DNA from: Arachidicoccus sp.
GTDB lineage: Bacteria > Bacteroidota > Bacteroidia > Chitinophagales > Chitinophagaceae
NCBI GenBank assembly: GCA_028283605.1
Contig: JAPWKH010000034.1
Coordinates: 74,464-138,463, forward strand
Direction of reading: 5' to 3'
DNA: 64,000 bases
The notes under the pieces are model-generated. The model saw nothing but the letters and a program-made list of their open reading frames with translations, was not told where the DNA came from and did not search any database. The stretch's first letter is position 1. Every line of letters starts with the position of its first letter. The position numbers were made by a program, and so were the translations under genes. This document shows positions 2,342 through 29,897 of this stretch, piece by piece.

Positions 2342-4087
2342 ATGAAGAAGGCATATATATTCCTAATAAGTTTCTCAATAATAATTAATCTGCCAGAAAC
2401 ATTATTTTCGCAAGTACAACCTAATCCTGATAGCGTTCGTGCACAAAGAGCAAGAATGCTCAAAGAACAAACCGAAGCGTATAACAACAAAGTGTTTACC
2501 CACGCCGACACTTTAAGAGGAAGTATTACGCCAGAGCGCGCCTGGTGGGACATTCAGAGATATGATGTAACCATAAAACCCGATTTTGTAAAAAAGTTTA
2601 CATCCGGCAGCGATTTGATAACTTATAAAGTTACGAAAGAATATCAGCCCGGTATGCAGATCGATTTGCAAGAGCCATTACAGATAGACAGCGTAATTTT
2701 TAATAAAAAAGAAAAATTATCATTTACACAGGAAGGAAATGCCTGGCATGTGCACGTACCGCATCAAAAGGTAGGAAGTATCAACAAAGTAGAAGTTTTT
2801 TTTCACGGTTATCCTCATATAGCAAAGCGGCCGCCATGGGACGGAGGATGGACTTTTACGGAAGATTCTCTTGGCCGTCCGTGGATGACTGTTTGTTGTC
2901 AGGGACTTGGCGCTTCTGTATGGTATCCTTGCAAAGATCATCAAAGTGATGAGCCGGATAAAGGAGCGTCTTTAACCATGATTGCGCCGGATACTTTGGT
3001 AGCGGTAAGCAATGGAAGGCTTCAATTCAGAAAAGAAAATGGAGATGGGACTGCAACAACTCAATGGTCAGTTTCAGATCCTATCAGCAATTATTGCATT
3101 ATTCCGTATATCGGAAAATATGTTCATTTTCACGAAGATTTTAAAGGCCGTAAAGGCCCGTTGGATTTAGATTATTGGGTGTTGGATTACAATCTTCAAA
3201 GAGCAAGAAATTATATGCCCGATGAGGTGCATCACATGTTGCAAGCTTTTGAATATTGGTATGGGCCTTATCCTTTTTATGAAGACGGTTACAAGCTGGT
3301 AGATGTTCAGAATACAGGAATGGAGCATCAAAGCGCGGTCGCTTATGGCAACAATTATGCATTCGGTTACAGAGGTCGTGATGAATCCGGTACAGGCTAT
3401 GGGCTGAAGTCCGACTTTATTATTCTGCATGAAAGCGGCCATGAATGGATGGGAAACAATATTACAACAAATGATCTTGCAGATATGTGGGTACACGAAG
3501 GTTTCACAAATTACGCCGAAGCATTGTATGTGGAATACAGATGGGGGACGGATGCAGCTAATGCTTATAATTTCGGCGAAAGAAGAAATATTAGAAACGA
3601 CAGGCCGATAATTGCAAGATATGGTGTAAATGAAGAAGGAAGCAGCGATATGTATTACAAAGGTGCAAACATGTTAAATTCCATCAGGCATAGTCTCGGA
3701 AATGATTCTTTATTCCATAAAATTCTGATTGGAATCAACAAAACATTTTATCATAAAACGGTTACCTCATCGGAAATAGAAAATTACATATCCGCGCAGG
3801 CAGGTTTTAATTATTCAAAAGTATTTTATCAGTATTTACACACTGTACAGATTCCGGAACTTGATTACTATTTCAGCGCGGATCGTAAGAAAGTATTTTA
3901 CAAGTATACAAATTGCATTGCAGGATTTAATTTACCGCTTGTGTTGCAAAATAATGCATCAACAATACGTATTATACCTGATGAAAATTGGCAAAGCATT
4001 TCGCTGAAAGACGATCGGCAAGCAGATCTTTTCAATGTGAAAGATATTAATTTCATGTATTACATTACTGTAAAGAAAGGTAAGTAA
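2342..4087 (+). CDS. M1 family metallo-aminopeptidase, secreted
   Basis: Signal peptide, GMEHQS, HESGHEW zinc motif with downstream WVHEGF, MYYKGA. Confidence 0.9.
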   Translation: MKKAYIFLISFSIIINLPETLFSQVQPNPDSVRAQRARMLKEQTEAYNNKVFTHADTLRGSITPERAWWDIQRYDVTIKPDFVKKFTSGSDLITYKVTKEYQPGMQIDLQEPLQIDSVIFNKKEKLSFTQEGNAWHVHVPHQKVGSINKVEVFFHGYPHIAKRPPWDGGWTFTEDSLGRPWMTVCCQGLGASVWYPCKDHQSDEPDKGASLTMIAPDTLVAVSNGRLQFRKENGDGTATTQWSVSDPISNYCIIPYIGKYVHFHEDFKGRKGPLDLDYWVLDYNLQRARNYMPDEVHHMLQAFEYWYGPYPFYEDGYKLVDVQNTGMEHQSAVAYGNNYAFGYRGRDESGTGYGLKSDFIILHESGHEWMGNNITTNDLADMWVHEGFTNYAEALYVEYRWGTDAANAYNFGERRNIRNDRPIIARYGVNEEGSSDMYYKGANMLNSIRHSLGNDSLFHKILIGINKTFYHKTVTSSEIENYISAQAGFNYSKVFYQYLHTVQIPELDYYFSADRKKVFYKYTNCIAGFNLPLVLQNNASTIRIIPDENWQSISLKDDRQADLFNVKDINFMYYITVKKGK

Positions 4088-4105
4088 CTTGCCATAAAAA
4101 AAATT

Positions 4106-5518
4106 ATGTTTGATAAAGAAATCTATAAAAAGAGGCGTTCTGTATTAAAAGAAAAAGTCGGCACCGGCCTTATACTTTTCATAGGCAATGAAGAAGTAGG
4201 AATGAATTATGCTGCAAACTCTTACCATTTCAGGCAAGACAGTACATTCTTATATTATACAGGCATTGATCTTCCCGGCCTTGCATTTATTATTGATATT
4301 GATGAGGACAAGGAAATTCTTTTTGGGAATGAACTTACCATTGATGATATTGTCTGGACAGGGCCTTTAGATCCTTTAACAGCTTGGGCAGACAAGGCAG
4401 GCATTACAATTACAAAGGCTTTCAAGGAAATCGATGCTTTGCTTAAAGCAGCTAAAGCTGCAGGAAAAGAAATACATTTTCTTCCGCCATACAGAGGCCG
4501 CCATGTGTTGAGGTTACAAGAATGGCTCGGATATGTTCCCAGCGAAATTGAAACGCAAATTTCGGAGAAGCTAATAAAATCAATAGTTTCAATGAGGTCG
4601 TACAAAAAACCGGAAGAAATTGCAGAAATGGAAAAGGCGGTAGATATTTCAACTGAAATGCATGAGTTGTTTTTTACATCTTTACAACCGGGCATTACAG
4701 AAAAATTTGTGGAAGGTATTGTTCATGGGCATGCTTTGAGTACGGGAAATAATCTCGCTTATCCTATAATTCTTACTATCAATGGAGAGACATTACATAT
4801 TCTTCCCCGCGACATTGAAATGGGAAAAGAAAGGCTGGCAATTTGTGACGCGGGGGCTGAAACTTCCATGCATTATGCAGGCGATCTTACACGAACTGCA
4901 CCGGTAAGCGGCAAATTTTCTTCCATCCAAAAAGATATTTACAATATTGTCTTACACGCGCAACTCGCATGCATTGAAGCATGTAAACCCGGTGTGCTGT
5001 TTCGTGATATACATGCTTTAGCAGGGGAAACACTTTTAAGCGGATTAAAAGATATTGGCTTAATAAAAGGAGATGTCCAGGAAGCCGTGTCGAAAGATGT
5101 ACACACATTATTTTTTCAGTGTGGGCTTGGGCACATGATTGGCCTTGATGTGCATGATATGGAAAACCTTGGCGAAAAATATATCGGTTATACTGATAAT
5201 ATAAAAAAGAGTACGGCTTTCGGATGGAAATCTTTGCGCTTAGCAAAAGCGTTGGAACCGGGCTTTACGCTGACTGTAGAACCGGGTATATATTTTATTC
5301 CGGTATTGATAGATCTATGGAAATCGGAAAATAAATTATCCCAATTTATTAATTATCAAGAGTTGGAAAAGTTTAAAGATTTTGGTGGAGTAAGAGTAGA
5401 AGATAATGTACTCATTACGCAAGGCGGATGCCGGATATTAGGCAATAAAATAGCACCCAAAACCATTGATGAAATTGAGGCTTATATATATCGTGTAAAT
5501 ACAATTCATAAAAAATAG
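4106..5518 (+). CDS. Xaa-Pro aminopeptidase/prolidase (M24B)
   Basis: FRQDSTFLY, DAGAE, GDLTRT, GLGHMIGLDVHD, TVEPG and GVRVED metal-ligand motifs. Confidence 0.9.
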   Translation: MFDKEIYKKRRSVLKEKVGTGLILFIGNEEVGMNYAANSYHFRQDSTFLYYTGIDLPGLAFIIDIDEDKEILFGNELTIDDIVWTGPLDPLTAWADKAGITITKAFKEIDALLKAAKAAGKEIHFLPPYRGRHVLRLQEWLGYVPSEIETQISEKLIKSIVSMRSYKKPEEIAEMEKAVDISTEMHELFFTSLQPGITEKFVEGIVHGHALSTGNNLAYPIILTINGETLHILPRDIEMGKERLAICDAGAETSMHYAGDLTRTAPVSGKFSSIQKDIYNIVLHAQLACIEACKPGVLFRDIHALAGETLLSGLKDIGLIKGDVQEAVSKDVHTLFFQCGLGHMIGLDVHDMENLGEKYIGYTDNIKKSTAFGWKSLRLAKALEPGFTLTVEPGIYFIPVLIDLWKSENKLSQFINYQELEKFKDFGGVRVEDNVLITQGGCRILGNKIAPKTIDEIEAYIYRVNTIHKK

Positions 5519-26643: not shown

Positions 26644-28164
26644 ATGGACAAGAAAATCAGAACACGCTTTGCGCCGTCGCCAACGGGCGGTTTGCATCTC
26701 GGCGGCGTACGCACGGTACTTTTTAATTATTTATTTACGAAGCAAAATAATGGTGAATTTATTTTAAGAATTGAAGATACAGACCAAACGCGCTTTGTGG
26801 AAGGTGCGGAAGAATATATTAATGAAACGCTTGCGTGGTGCGGCTTACAACCTGATGAAAGTCCTGTAAAAGGTGGTCCTTACGCACCTTACAGACAGAG
26901 CGAGCGTAAAGAAATTTATCGTAAATACGCGGAAGAATTAGTAGAAAAAGGTATTGCTTATTATGCTTTCGATACACCGGAAGAACTGGATACGAAGCGT
27001 AAAGAAATTCCGAATTTCAAGTATGATTTATCGACAAGAAATTCATTGAATAATTCTTTGACTTTGAGCGATGATGAAGTAAAAGAACTGTTGGATAAAA
27101 ATACACCGCACGTAATTCGCGTAAAAATGCCGGAAGAAAATGAAACCGTTTCTTTTGTAGATTTGATTCGCGGCGAAGTGCATTTCAACACTTCCGAATC
27201 GGATGATAAAGTTCTGTTGAAAGCCGACGGAATGCCGACTTATCATTTGGCGGTTGTGGTAGATGATTATTTGATGAAAATAACGCAAGCTTTTCGCGGC
27301 GAGGAATGGCTGCCGAGCGCACCGGTGCATGTGTATTTATGGAAGCATTTATTTGGCATTGAAAATATGCCGCAATGGGCGCATTTGCCGTTGATTTTAA
27401 AACCCGACGGCAACGGAAAACTCAGCAAACGCGATGGCGAACGTTTGGGCTTTCCGGTCTTCGCGATGAACTGGACAGATCCTCGTACAAACGAATCCAC
27501 GCAAGGCTTTCGCGAGCGTGGCTTTTTACCCGAAGCATTCGTAAATATGCTTGCCGTGCTCGGTTGGAATGATGGAACGGAACAGGAAATTTATTCGATG
27601 GATGAATTGCTGGAAAAATTTTCCGTAGAAAAAATTCACAAAGGTGGCGCAAAATTCAGTTATGATAAAGCGCTTTGGTTCAACCATGAATGGATTAAAA
27701 AATTATCGGCAGAAAAGTTATTGCCTTACATAAAAAATGTTTTCGCGGAGAAAAATATTGTTGTAAAAGATGATGCGGTCTTATTGAAAGTGATTGACTT
27801 GGTAAAAGAACGTTGCACTTTGTTGCCTGACTTTGTTGAACAATCATCTTTCTTTTTTCAATCGCCTGATACGCTTGATATTGCTTCCGTTCTGCCGAAA
27901 TGGAACGAACATAAAAATAATTTTTTTATAGAATTAATCCGTTCTTATGAACTCGCAACAGCGTTCGATGCAGAAACATTGGAGCATTCATTTAAAGAAA
28001 TGGCAGCAGCTTCCCAACTGAAACCGGGAGAATTAATGCTGCCTTTCCGCATTATGTTGGTCGGTGGAAAATTCGGTCCGCATGTGTTTGATATTGCAGC
28101 TGTGTTGGGGAAAGAGGAAACGGTTAAGAGAATAAAACGAGGACTTTCGATTTTAGAAAATTAG
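26644..28164 (+). CDS. gltX: Glutamate--tRNA ligase
   Basis: RFAPSPTG.LHLGG (HIGH-like), LRIEDTD, YRQSER, RGEEWL, KLSKR. Confidence 0.97.
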   Translation: MDKKIRTRFAPSPTGGLHLGGVRTVLFNYLFTKQNNGEFILRIEDTDQTRFVEGAEEYINETLAWCGLQPDESPVKGGPYAPYRQSERKEIYRKYAEELVEKGIAYYAFDTPEELDTKRKEIPNFKYDLSTRNSLNNSLTLSDDEVKELLDKNTPHVIRVKMPEENETVSFVDLIRGEVHFNTSESDDKVLLKADGMPTYHLAVVVDDYLMKITQAFRGEEWLPSAPVHVYLWKHLFGIENMPQWAHLPLILKPDGNGKLSKRDGERLGFPVFAMNWTDPRTNESTQGFRERGFLPEAFVNMLAVLGWNDGTEQEIYSMDELLEKFSVEKIHKGGAKFSYDKALWFNHEWIKKLSAEKLLPYIKNVFAEKNIVVKDDAVLLKVIDLVKERCTLLPDFVEQSSFFFQSPDTLDIASVLPKWNEHKNNFFIELIRSYELATAFDAETLEHSFKEMAAASQLKPGELMLPFRIMLVGGKFGPHVFDIAAVLGKEETVKRIKRGLSILEN

Positions 28165-28179
28165 TTAAAATTAATTATT

Positions 28180-28230
28180 GTGAATAAAAAAATAGCCATT
28201 ATCGGCGGAGGAAATTTAGGTTCTGCAATT
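28180..28230 (+). pseudogene. proC: Duplicated 5' fragment of proC (17 codons)
   Basis: 47/51 nt identical to 29097-29147 and encodes the same MNKKIAIIGGGNLGSAI; then runs into REP DNA and stops at TGA 28273-28275. Confidence 0.85.
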
Positions 28231-28400
28231 CAATATCAGGCGTTCCTAACGGAACGAGATAAATATGTTGATTGATTTTTCTACCAATCAAAATCTCCCG
28301 ATGGGACAAGCAAATTTATAGATTGTGCAATGCTCCATAGGAGCATTTGGTTGGTAGAATTAAGGATGCAAAGTTTCGTTCCTAAGGAACGGTTGATATA
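28231..28400. repeat. Cluster of four REP-like hairpins arranged as two nested inverted pairs
   Basis: CGTTCC-taac-GGAACG (28241-56), TCCC-gat-GGGA with TTCTACCAAT tail (28279-306), AATGCTCC-ata-GGAGCATT with TGGTAGAA tail (28329-59), CGTTCC-taa-GGAACG (28377-91). Confidence 0.8.
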
Positions 28401-28414
28401 CAATATCCAAAGCT

Positions 28415-28873
28415 ATGTCGAACAGTTATTCGCAAATTCACATACAATTTGTATTTGCCGTTAAATATAGGACGGCATTAATAAGCAATGAATGGAAAGA
28501 AAGATTATATCAATATATCACGGGGATTTTTCGACAAAACAAACACAAAGTTTTACAAATAAACGGAATGCCGGACCACATACATATTTTTATAGGAATG
28601 CGTCCGCATCAGTCTATTTCCTCATTGATACAAAATGTCAAAACAGAAAGCAGTAAATGGATTAAAGCACAAAAATTATCGCCGTCATTCGCGTGGCAGG
28701 AGGGTTATGGCGCTTTCTCGTATTCAAGAAGCCAAATAAATAATGTGGTTCATTATATTCAGAACCAGGAAAAACATCATAAGAAAGAAACGTTTTTGGA
28801 TGAATATAAAAAATTCCTGACGGCTTTCGAAATTGAATGGGATGAAAAATATATTTTTAAGCAATTGGAATAA
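28415..28873 (+). mobile_element. tnpA: IS200-family Y1 HUH transposase (TnpA / REP-associated tyrosine transposase-like)
   Basis: HIQFVFAVKYR, GMPDHIH (HUH), WQEGYGAFS, catalytic YIQNQEKHH; no tnpB; REP-like hairpins immediately upstream. Confidence 0.9.
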
Positions 28874-29096
28874 TGGCTTGATCAATTACTTTACAGAAAA
28901 GAAGAACAATAAATATTTCTTCCCTGAGAAACAATTAAATTGAATAATAAAATAATAATTATAAATAATTTTCGTCCCGAAACTATTGATTGGAAAAATG
29001 TGGTAGAAGAAATATCCCAGGTATAGTAGTTTATCTCACAAAACAAAATAAAACACAGGTGCAATGGTTTTAATTATTGACTAAATATATCTTTCA

Positions 29097-29897
29097 ATGA
29101 ACAAAAAAATAGCCATTATCGGCGGCGGAAATTTAGGTTCGGCAATTGCCGAAGGTATTATCAGCAGTGGCTTTGCTCAGCCTGAAAATATTTTTATTAC
29201 AAAAAGAAATGTTGAAACATTAGCTTCTTTACAAGAAAAAGGAGTGAATGTTTTGAGCAATAATGTACAAGCTATTGAAAACGCGGAATACGTTATCCTT
29301 GCCATAAAACCGTTTCAAATTAAAGATATAGTTGAAGAAATAAAACCTTCTTTGATAAAAGATAAACACATTGTAATCAGTGTGGTGACAGGCGTTTGGA
29401 TAAAAGATTTGATTGAACTCGTCGGCGAAGATTTTGCCATTGTCCGAGCTATGCCGAACACAGCAATTGCCATTCGCGAAAGCATGACTTGTATTTGCTC
29501 GCACAACACAAATGAAGAACAAACAATTTATGTAAGCAATCTGTTTAATCAGCTTGGCAAGTCGGTTGTCATCGATGAAAAGCTGATGGATGCTGCAACG
29601 GTTCTCGGCGCTTGCGGAACGGCGTTTGCCATGCGTTATATTCGTGCGAATATTCAAGGTGGTGTGGAGATTGGTTTTAATGCACAAATCGCAGCAACGA
29701 TTGCCGCGCAAACCGTGAAAGGCGCAGCAGAATTATTGCTCGTAAAACACACGCATCCGGAACAGGAAATCGACAAAGTAACTACGCCGAAAGGTTGTAC
29801 CATTGCAGGTTTGAATGAAATGGAACATCAAGGTTTAAGTTCTTCAATAATTCGCGGTATTACTACAAGTTATAAGAAGATTGTGAATGATATGTAG
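29097..29897 (+). CDS. proC: Pyrroline-5-carboxylate reductase
   Basis: IIGGGNLG, LAIKP, RAMPNT, VTTPKGCTIAG. Confidence 0.95.
   Translation: MNKKIAIIGGGNLGSAIAEGIISSGFAQPENIFITKRNVETLASLQEKGVNVLSNNVQAIENAEYVILAIKPFQIKDIVEEIKPSLIKDKHIVISVVTGVWIKDLIELVGEDFAIVRAMPNTAIAIRESMTCICSHNTNEEQTIYVSNLFNQLGKSVVIDEKLMDAATVLGACGTAFAMRYIRANIQGGVEIGFNAQIAATIAAQTVKGAAELLLVKHTHPEQEIDKVTTPKGCTIAGLNEMEHQGLSSSIIRGITTSYKKIVNDM

Follow-up and report, generated by a model that had tools for sequence, protein, structure and literature searches.

A probable REPtron-like unit in an Arachidicoccus genome: a single-copy Y1 transposase gene with inverted double-hairpin arms between gltX and proC

The stretch of DNA analysed, referred to below as the window, covers 64,000 nucleotides (nt) of the genome of Arachidicoccus sp. 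(GenBank assembly GCA_028283605.1, contig JAPWKH010000034.1). It contains, between the genes gltX and proC, a gene named tnpA (28415..28873, forward strand), predicted to encode a single-strand DNA endonuclease of the HUH/Y1 type, 152 amino acids long (Pfam Y1_Tnp, E 9.5e-30). Four hairpins are found upstream of it within 28241-28391, in the order forward, forward, reverse, reverse, so as to form two inverted arms. These hairpins had been noticed in a preliminary description of the window, based on its letters alone, which placed them directly upstream of a lone HUH/Y1 gene without tnpB and interpreted the whole as a REP/RAYT-like system. The anatomy was confirmed in all its parts: all four hairpins have the position and orientation given to them, the reverse arm ends 10 nt before the ATG of tnpA, which is the usual site for a reverse arm in the family, no tnpB open reading frame adjoins the gene, and the next gene is proC.

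Each arm joins an outer to an inner hairpin, with a TTCTACC/GGTAGAA tag between them. In the left arm, the outer hairpin is formed by CGTTCC (28241-28246) and GGAACG (28251-28256) around the loop TAAC, with ATATCA at 28233-28238; the tag TTCTACC is located at 28279-28285, and the inner hairpin, TCCC-GAT-GGGA (28296-28306), lies 10 nt past it. In the right arm, the inner hairpin ATGCTCC-ATA-GGAGCAT (28330-28346) is followed by the tag GGTAGAA (28353-28359) and by the outer hairpin CGTTCC-TAA-GGAACG (28377-28391), with TGATAT at 28394-28399; the outer pair thus shares ATATCA and CGTTCC/GGAACG, as originally reported. When the region 28228-28404 is folded as single-stranded DNA, a value of -33.2 kcal/mol is obtained, compared with -14.6 +/- 2.8 for dinucleotide shuffles (z = -6.6; 0 of 200 shuffles as good). 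A covariance model, R1, built from 26 arms of other loci with the window excluded and covering one arm type, was used to scan the window and matched exactly two places, the forward arm at 28228..28311 on the forward strand (38.2 bits, E 3.3e-7) and the reverse arm at 28328..28404 on the reverse strand (47.1 bits, E 2.6e-9); the next match, with an E value of 0.06, overlaps those arms. Because the fold is so far from the shuffles, and because a model built from other genomes only recovers exactly both places, the arms are more than a chance occurrence and represent non-random structures. A search against Rfam returned just chance-level matches to eukaryotic microRNA and small nucleolar RNA families, and scanning the module for promoters and terminators revealed nothing above shuffles and no site resembling an intrinsic terminator.

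The same arrangement is present in a metagenome contig of 1612 nt (L108; Logan, SRR22729506), which differs from the window at a single position, C/G at 28295 (column 485 of L108). The G found in L108 gives the inner left stem a fifth pair, GTCCC/GGGAC, which is the commonest stem in the family, and the C of the window weakens that stem. In the inner stem of the reverse arm, GCTCC/GGAGC in the window corresponds to GTTCC/GGAAC in two other loci, L109 and L110, by a compensatory double change.

The catalytic motifs of TnpA are intact (D54-H55-I-H57; W94-Q95; Y114-IQN-Q118-EKHH, that is YIQNQEKHH) and are followed by a conserved C-terminal tail of about 30 amino acids, helical in the AlphaFold2 (AF2) model of the protein (predicted local distance difference test score, pLDDT, 84.6). 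Residues H121, H122, K124, F127, E130, Y131, L135, I140, Y146 and F148 are invariant in nine aligned sequences, 43-85% identical. The protein passes the NCBIfam IS200/IS605 equivalog model NF033573 (80.9 bits, cut-off 55) and fails the REP_Tyr_transpos model NF047646 (30.1 bits, cut-off 80); its tyrosine motif is YIQNQ, not the YxxxNP of RAYT and class 2 enzymes. The best solved relatives by sequence are the TnpA proteins of ISDra2, Sulfolobus and IS608, and the E. coli RAYT is absent from the matches to solved structures at E < 1. Comparison by Foldseek of the predicted model ranked structures of IS200/IS605 TnpA (ISDra2, IS608) in the first 29 places, with E values from 7e-9 to 5e-7, and the RAYT structure 4er8 at rank 30 (E 6e-6).

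In the classification of TnpA_Y1 proteins by Quentin, Siguier, Chandler and Fichant (2018, BMC Genomics 19:475; PMC6006769), class 2 proteins carry Y---NP, and subclass 1.2 groups IS200-related proteins lacking the properties of insertion sequences (IS), present in low copy, mostly in Bacteroidetes and Cyanobacteria, and annotated "REP: no". All motifs given for this subclass in Table 1 of that paper, DH[IV]H, WQ and Y---Q--HH, are matched here (DHIH, WQ, YIQNQEKHH), and the likeness extends to the size (about 148-150 amino acids, here 152), to the subclass-specific C-terminal tail of about 30 amino acids, to the Bacteroidetes/Cyanobacteria distribution and to the low copy number; the count of gene copies, suggested earlier as a check, gave one tnpA in a genome of 3.59 Mb, 98.9% complete. 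Judged by these sequence features, TnpA belongs to subclass 1.2 and is not a RAYT in the defined sense, contrary to what had been proposed on first inspection. The difference concerns the repeats: the subclass was published without REP or terminal secondary structures, while conserved, co-varying bipartite arms closely border the gene here and at most related loci examined, and are dispersed in related genomes. The arms are in contradiction with the published description of subclass 1.2, not with the membership of tnpA in it. In the literature searched, subclass 1.2 is described only by Quentin et al. 2018 (PMC6006769), without repeats.

The TnpA family is large: 4292 clusters were collected at E <= 1e-20, named "IS200/IS605 family transposase" or "RayT" in their sources, and the clusters listed mostly stand for one member on one contig. 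The nearest named relatives are from Chitinophagaceae, Flavobacterium, Mucilaginibacter, Ginsengibacter and Algoriphagus. The arms were studied at family level in 91 loci encoding TnpA relatives of 42-85% identity. There, CTACC tags are followed by a short hairpin in 198 of 320 cases (62%) within 600 nt of the gene, against 56 of 354 (16%) farther off. The stems are of 65 different sequences, each of them of the form ...CC, loop of 3-4 nt, GG..., and 6-8 nt separate the tag from the stem. Units in reverse orientation are most frequent 50-100 nt ahead of the start codon, those in forward orientation 50-100 nt past the stop codon; a bipartite arm can be read from these flanks, made up of a gene-proximal outer hairpin, about 22 nt, the tag and the inner hairpin.

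R1 identified 219 arms in 57 sources, many of them abutting the start and stop codons of tnpA. In the alignment of these arms, stem positions are paired in 92.9% of the cells, compared with 78.2% in shuffles, and changes on both sides of the stem are found in 326 cells against 85 in shuffles; the value of 326 is reached in 0 of 500 shuffles, and slid controls give 60 at most. The sequence of the stems therefore varies while their pairing is kept, as had been noticed in the window. One-sided changes of the wobble, G-T type are limited to 8 of 1786 cells; because they are almost absent, a DNA hairpin able to form on either strand fits the data, rather than an RNA fold. At family level, these results support the view that the arms are cognate modules of the Y1 gene family, selected for their structure. 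In several loci (L048, L059, L073, L076, L082 and L091) the outer hairpin has the form CGTACC-loop-GGCACG, in which the third pair counted from the loop is in each case an A-C mismatch (7 of 46 in alignment A3); by analogy with the bulge of E. coli REP, this mismatch may be a conserved recognition feature.

In the 3.6-Mb genome that contains the window, R1 detects both window arms and nothing else; genome-wide searches for the motifs, by regular expressions and blastn-short, reveal no further copies beyond the locus, and a general scan for tagged hairpins gives 8 matches, compared with 11 in a reversed-genome control. The single other candidate unit in this genome is a lone tagged hairpin, ACTACCAACATGGTAATTCC-TAT-GGAAT, outside the window at position 178087 of contig C11, which is below the R1 threshold and may be a chance occurrence or a relic. 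Since R1 finds the two gene-linked arms only, this genome holds no REP population, and the copies of TTCTACC hairpins and the REPINs that the preliminary description proposed to look for are missing beyond the locus. The hairpins are indeed confined to one place in this genome, yet identical multi-copy IS elements do not exist either.

R1 was also run over 41 related genomes, scoring 112 candidates per genome, so that the counts obtained are lower bounds. At least 109 arms were found in G012, 72 in G026, 69 in G018, 35 in G008, 32 in G021, 31 in G034 and 22 in G019, and at least 21, 12 and 11 in further genomes. The copies are spread over many contigs, as singlets, inverted doublets of both polarities and tandems, and gene-less arms outnumber tnpA genes 10-100 fold. 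Gene and arms are both present in 13 genomes and both missing in 21, the gene occurs alone in 4 and the arms alone in 3 (Fisher p = 5.6e-5). Because arms are dispersed and track the gene in relatives, the REP-like idea holds for the family, despite the presence of just a gene-linked doublet here; the REP/REPIN system supposed at the outset is thus retained for the family and abandoned for this genome.

Some genomes depart from this association. No subclass 1.2 gene is detectable in G027, with at least 11 arms, and in G015, with at least 5. Conversely, G017, G030, G032 and G037 possess the gene and no arms of the modelled type; a different repeat is seen there in locus L011. These patterns indicate that orphan arms and other arm types exist. 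In G021, locus L003 contains (positions 1-290), about 1 kb upstream of a tnpA cluster, two dense tandem arrays, one of 7-nt CAACATC units, reported as a 14-nt period, the other of AAGTCATTG-like units of about 9 nt.

Several known systems resemble the locus in part. REPtrons, in which a tnpA_REP (RAYT) gene is reportedly flanked by REP/BIME sequences, as in E. coli (Nunvar 2010; Ton-Hoang 2012; Messing 2012, structure PDB 4er8), share with it a single-copy HUH/Y1 gene flanked by cognate short palindromes with a GTAG-containing tag, inverted doublets and tandem clusters, and the co-occurrence of repeat and enzyme, the arms being considered in related genomes. The differences are that the enzyme is here of class 1 (YxxxQ), not of class 2 (YxxxNP), as reflected by the REP_Tyr_transpos score and the rank of 4er8; that each unit has two hairpins with the tag in between and stems of just 4-8 bp; that no dispersed copies are present in this genome; and that the tag is located 6-8 nt from the stem, after the hairpin on the GTAG strand. 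In E. coli REP, according to Corneloup 2021 (PMC8266576), the motif precedes the palindrome. The resemblance to GTAG-carrying REPs mentioned in the preliminary description therefore stands as to the content of the tag and fails as to its geometry. The GTAG-tagged REP superfamily of Di Nocera et al. 2013 (PMC3733652) is similar in its short stem-loop with an unpaired GTAG-containing tag and in its head-head, tail-tail and head-tail dimers, but in that superfamily the tag abuts the stem; none of the GTAG repeats of that survey came from Bacteroidetes, their hosts being Proteobacteria, Cyanobacteria, Chloroflexi and the PVC group.

The REPIN-RAYT systems of Pseudomonas are reported to be vertically inherited and to maintain large REPIN populations (Bertels and Rainey 2011, PMC3116915; Bertels et al. 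2017). As in those systems, the two inverted arms are able to fold together as one long hairpin (z = -6.6), and they stand beside a single-copy Y1 gene under purifying selection; unlike them, the gene is patchy among relatives and absent in several congeners, and no population exists in this genome. As for the defining REPIN feature, the replication of an inverted pair as a unit, one doublet copy is present in this genome and doublets of both polarities are dispersed in relatives.

IS200/IS605 elements end in hairpins on the same strand, insert without target duplication and are present in multiple near-identical copies. The group (IS200, IS608 and ISDra2, with PATEs as their gene-less derivatives) provides the closest transposases in sequence and fold, which recognise hairpins in single-stranded DNA, and the gene-less doublets with a reverse arm followed by a forward one resemble the two ends of the element once its gene is taken out. 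The locus described here differs in its single copy, its inverted arms and a target repeat of at least 50 nt.

The left neighbour gltX (26644..28164, forward strand) encodes glutamyl-tRNA synthetase (Pfam tRNA-synt_1c, E 5.4e-87) and the right neighbour proC (29097..29897, forward strand) encodes pyrroline-5-carboxylate reductase as an intact open reading frame of 266 amino acids (Pfam P5CR_dimer, 6.4e-31; F420_oxidored, 1.3e-19). The two genes are 932 nt apart in the window, and the insert accounts for about 840 nt; in three genomes of the same genus (G001, G007 and G006) the proC start follows the gltX stop within 13-41 nt. The unit is absent from the equivalent site of these congeners and was thus inserted. 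Four same-genus genomes are without any tnpA homologue, and homologues are patchy in the family; together with the three empty sites, this makes the domestication suggested at first doubtful. Most likely, the unit is a recent arrival within the genus whose arms have not spread.

On either side of the insert stands a direct repeat of the 5' end of proC, 28181-28230 and 29098-29147, 50 nt long and 94% identical, which the preliminary description of these hairpins did not mention. The upstream copy (28171..28230, forward strand) is non-functional: its secure part, 28181-28230, is a remnant of proC codons 1-17, whose frame runs to a stop inside the element. It also shows a 10-nt match, TTAATTATTG (28171-28180), and an 18-nt deletion by which the A of the ATG is lost; these may extend the duplication to 61 nt on the upstream side and 79 nt on the downstream side. 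The downstream copy (29070..29147, forward strand), of which 29098-29147 only is secure repeat, consists of the last 27 nt before proC and of codons 1-17, and is continuous with the 266 amino acid reading frame, by which proC was kept intact. Three substitutions separate the two proC copies, all at synonymous third-codon positions; at two of the three, the sequences of three same-genus genomes agree with the downstream copy, the third being ambiguous. The breakpoint lies at the centre of a perfect 16-nt palindrome, TTCGGCAATTGCCGAA (29138-29153; proC codons 14-19), which may be a hairpin-like target or a chance occurrence.

Between tnpA and the downstream copy, an AT-rich stretch (28874..29057; about 25% GC, no strand assigned) was interpreted by comparison with positions 800-981 of L109, a sister locus. 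The 223 nt after tnpA have no significant fold (z = +0.69) and no R1 match was found in 28874-29057; all that is left there is the tag GGTAGAA (29002-29008), together with a weak hairpin, TTTCG-TCC-CGAAA (28970-28982), and the arm flank AAAATAAAAC. Since its length and these landmarks align with the L109 doublet, the stretch is the remnant of a decayed downstream arm doublet.

In L109, a contig from ENA, a TnpA 91% identical to that of the window is encoded directly upstream of a proC 87% identical, in the order forward arm, reverse arm, tnpA, forward arm, reverse arm, proC, with complete doublets on both sides. Differences between window and L109 at codon positions 1, 2 and 3 number 8, 5 and 49 in tnpA, and 28, 10 and 113 in proC, which shows strong purifying selection on tnpA, no weaker than on a housekeeping gene; the divergence of tnpA is similar to that of its neighbour proC. 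The junctions differ: the 29 nt preceding the downstream copy in the window (29058-29086) resemble L109 19-47, located there on the other side of the element, a comparison limited by the end of the L109 contig near these positions. About 390 nt past proC, L109 also carries, at 2171-2277, an overlapping reverse and forward arm sharing one outer hairpin; this gene-less doublet is without counterpart at the equivalent place in the window's genome.

The proC neighbourhood is in common between the window and this sister locus only. A site-specific element, choosing proC as phage 21 chooses icd, was considered and rejected as a general rule: none of 90 other loci adjoins proC or gltX, and none of 80 metagenome proC loci has tnpA nearby. 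The scan of metagenome proC sequences for a closer empty site gave best matches just 73% identical.

A long duplication was found at a second, unrelated locus. In L072, from a Ginsengibacter metagenome-assembled genome (MAG; JBDSFG010000244.1), a forward arm, a reverse arm and tnpA, with nothing downstream, lie between the two copies, 93% identical, of a 224-nt duplication taken from the 3' end of the large upstream neighbour gene. Between these copies (about 1957-2180 and 3011-3229 of the locus) there are 4 synonymous and 6 non-synonymous changes as well as 2 indels, and the downstream one carries frameshifts. At five further loci, whose arms are confined to the upstream side, no flanking repeats exceed the level of shuffled controls. 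Long duplications therefore recur without being general, or else they are soon lost.

Taken together, the locus is probably a REPtron-like unit, in which a single-copy HUH/Y1 gene of subclass 1.2 is associated with cognate inverted bipartite arms, and which arrived within the genus and has not spread. Its anatomy, the covariation of the stems, the co-occurrence of arms and gene, the empty sites and the purifying selection on tnpA are established here, to which a predicted fold is added. The preliminary description was right in spirit, since it recognised a system of cognate hairpins and Y1 enzyme, and wrong both in the class of the enzyme and in expecting a REP population in this genome.

By analogy with the TnpA of IS608 and ISDra2 and with E. 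coli TnpA_REP, TnpA would bind the arm hairpins in single-stranded DNA, such as that of the lagging-strand template, and would cut and rejoin it at or near the tag through Tyr114, with His55, His57 and Gln118 holding a metal ion; the tag would then be a cleavage or guide site. In relatives, this activity, or a selection linked to it, would have multiplied the arms to dozens, and up to more than 100, dispersed copies. Here the unit (forward arm, reverse arm, tnpA and the now decayed doublet; about 840 nt) landed in the first 17 codons of proC, and on its two sides stand the copies of the duplicated gene start (50 nt secure, possibly 61/79 nt), of which the downstream one still gives an intact gene. 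The origin of unit and duplication is likewise an inference.

Some observations do not fit easily with this reading. No dispersed arms are found in this genome that would speak for activity here. Four relatives have the gene without an arm detected by R1, and three have arms without the gene. The alignment used to count covariation was fitted to R1, which biases the counts towards structure; an independent MAFFT alignment shows compensatory pairs in the outer stem too. Finally, the arms are inverted, and as such are unfit for same-strand excision of the IS608 type, and no known Y1 transposition yields flanking duplications of 50 nt or more, such as the 50-224 nt seen at this locus and at L072.

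As for the long target duplication, entry of the unit may have occurred either via a transposase-linked event, with 50-224 nt duplicated, or by horizontal transfer with recombination. According to the latter account, which is possible though less likely than not, the unit was not moved by its own transposase; it was brought in horizontally and joined by homology-facilitated illegitimate recombination, or else it came on a circle with a piece of proC that underwent Campbell-type integration; the two 5' copies of proC would be the donor and recipient alleles rather than a target-site duplication, an origin compatible with a REPtron-like nature of the unit. Transfer is favoured by the three differences between the copies, all synonymous at third-codon positions, as expected for two functional alleles and with a probability of about 0.02 under neutral decay, although three differences are too few to decide. 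The position of the 29 nt shared with L109 on the other side of the element, the lack of a known Y1 precedent for duplications of this size and the occurrence of 73-74% identical TnpA in both Flavobacterium and Chitinophagaceae, which points to horizontal transfer, agree with it. Duplication in place is instead favoured by the decay pattern of the L072 copies, whose differences include non-synonymous changes and indels, and by the left junction, only a few nt away from the conserved beginning of the forward arm, a rare outcome for a random illegitimate joint; moreover, in codon states specific to the window, the upstream copy agrees with the downstream one and not with L109.

The hairpins might also be thought of as mainly signals for tnpA expression, acting as insulator, attenuator or mRNA stability element rather than as enzyme substrates, in the manner of the IS200 leader hairpins, which are established to limit expression (mentioned in PMC3733652). 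The fixed distance of the reverse arm upstream of the start codon in most loci, and the fact that arms abut both ends of the reading frame, are in line with such a role. It is nevertheless unlikely, in view of the arms that lie at a distance from every tnpA, spread over many contigs, in either orientation and also as doublets without a gene, of the near absence of G-T pairs, which speaks against selection on an RNA fold, and of the failure to find a terminator-like site in the module. An ordinary IS200-type insertion sequence, present here in single copy, would account for the score against the IS200/IS605 equivalog model, for the predicted fold closest to the TnpA of ISDra2 and IS608, and for the empty site in three congeners, which marks the unit as inserted. 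This explanation is nonetheless very improbable: the gene is single copy, and among the homologue clusters listed those of one member on one contig prevail, the ends are inverted bipartite arms instead of a left-end and a right-end hairpin on the same strand, the flanks carry a long duplication, the tyrosine motif and C-terminal tail are those of subclass 1.2, set apart from IS200 proper in PMC6006769, and gene-less arms exceed genes 10-100 fold in relatives.

Knowledge of REP/RAYT biology is based almost entirely on Proteobacteria and class 2 enzymes. A class 1, subclass 1.2 enzyme, from the IS200 side of the tree, provided with its own co-evolving hairpin repeats in Bacteroidota would correct the sole published description of the subclass, and would suggest that both sides of the Y1 family evolved, or kept, a partnership with repeats. 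A wider proposal, rather doubtful as a whole and advanced tentatively, is that subclass 1.2 enzymes are the partners of widespread, undescribed Bacteroidota repeats, bipartite and GTAG-tagged with a double hairpin, as a class 1 counterpart of REP/RAYT, and that the gene-carrying unit inserts by a non-canonical route, leaving long target duplications of variable size (50 nt or more at this locus and 224 nt in L072). Replication coupling or hairpin targeting could underlie such a route, which would differ from the peel-and-paste of IS200/IS605 and, if real, would allow insertion into the end of a gene that nonetheless stays functional; a duplication that is part of the insertion mechanism would represent a new mode of transposition. 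The locus is simple: it has one gene and two arms, three congeners provide empty sites, the junctions are exact, and L109 serves as a sister locus. As such it offers a clean start for biochemistry on the strand, hairpin and tag position that would be cut, and for asking how the long target duplication arises. Practical consequences are modest: database names are inconsistent ("IS200/IS605 family transposase", "RayT") and the arms are not annotated.

Flanking repeats were also noticed at a few other loci. Those of L077 and L105 were rejected as target duplications, being due to paralogous genes. L060 has a 40-nt flanking repeat. In L077, from a Bacteroidales MAG, the genes at 999-2057 and 3003-4118, each of about 350 amino acids, are paralogous (80-90% DNA identity in patches) and flank a canonical cassette, reverse arm, tnpA, forward arm; this locus may derive from a tandem gene duplication, with the cassette placed between the two copies.

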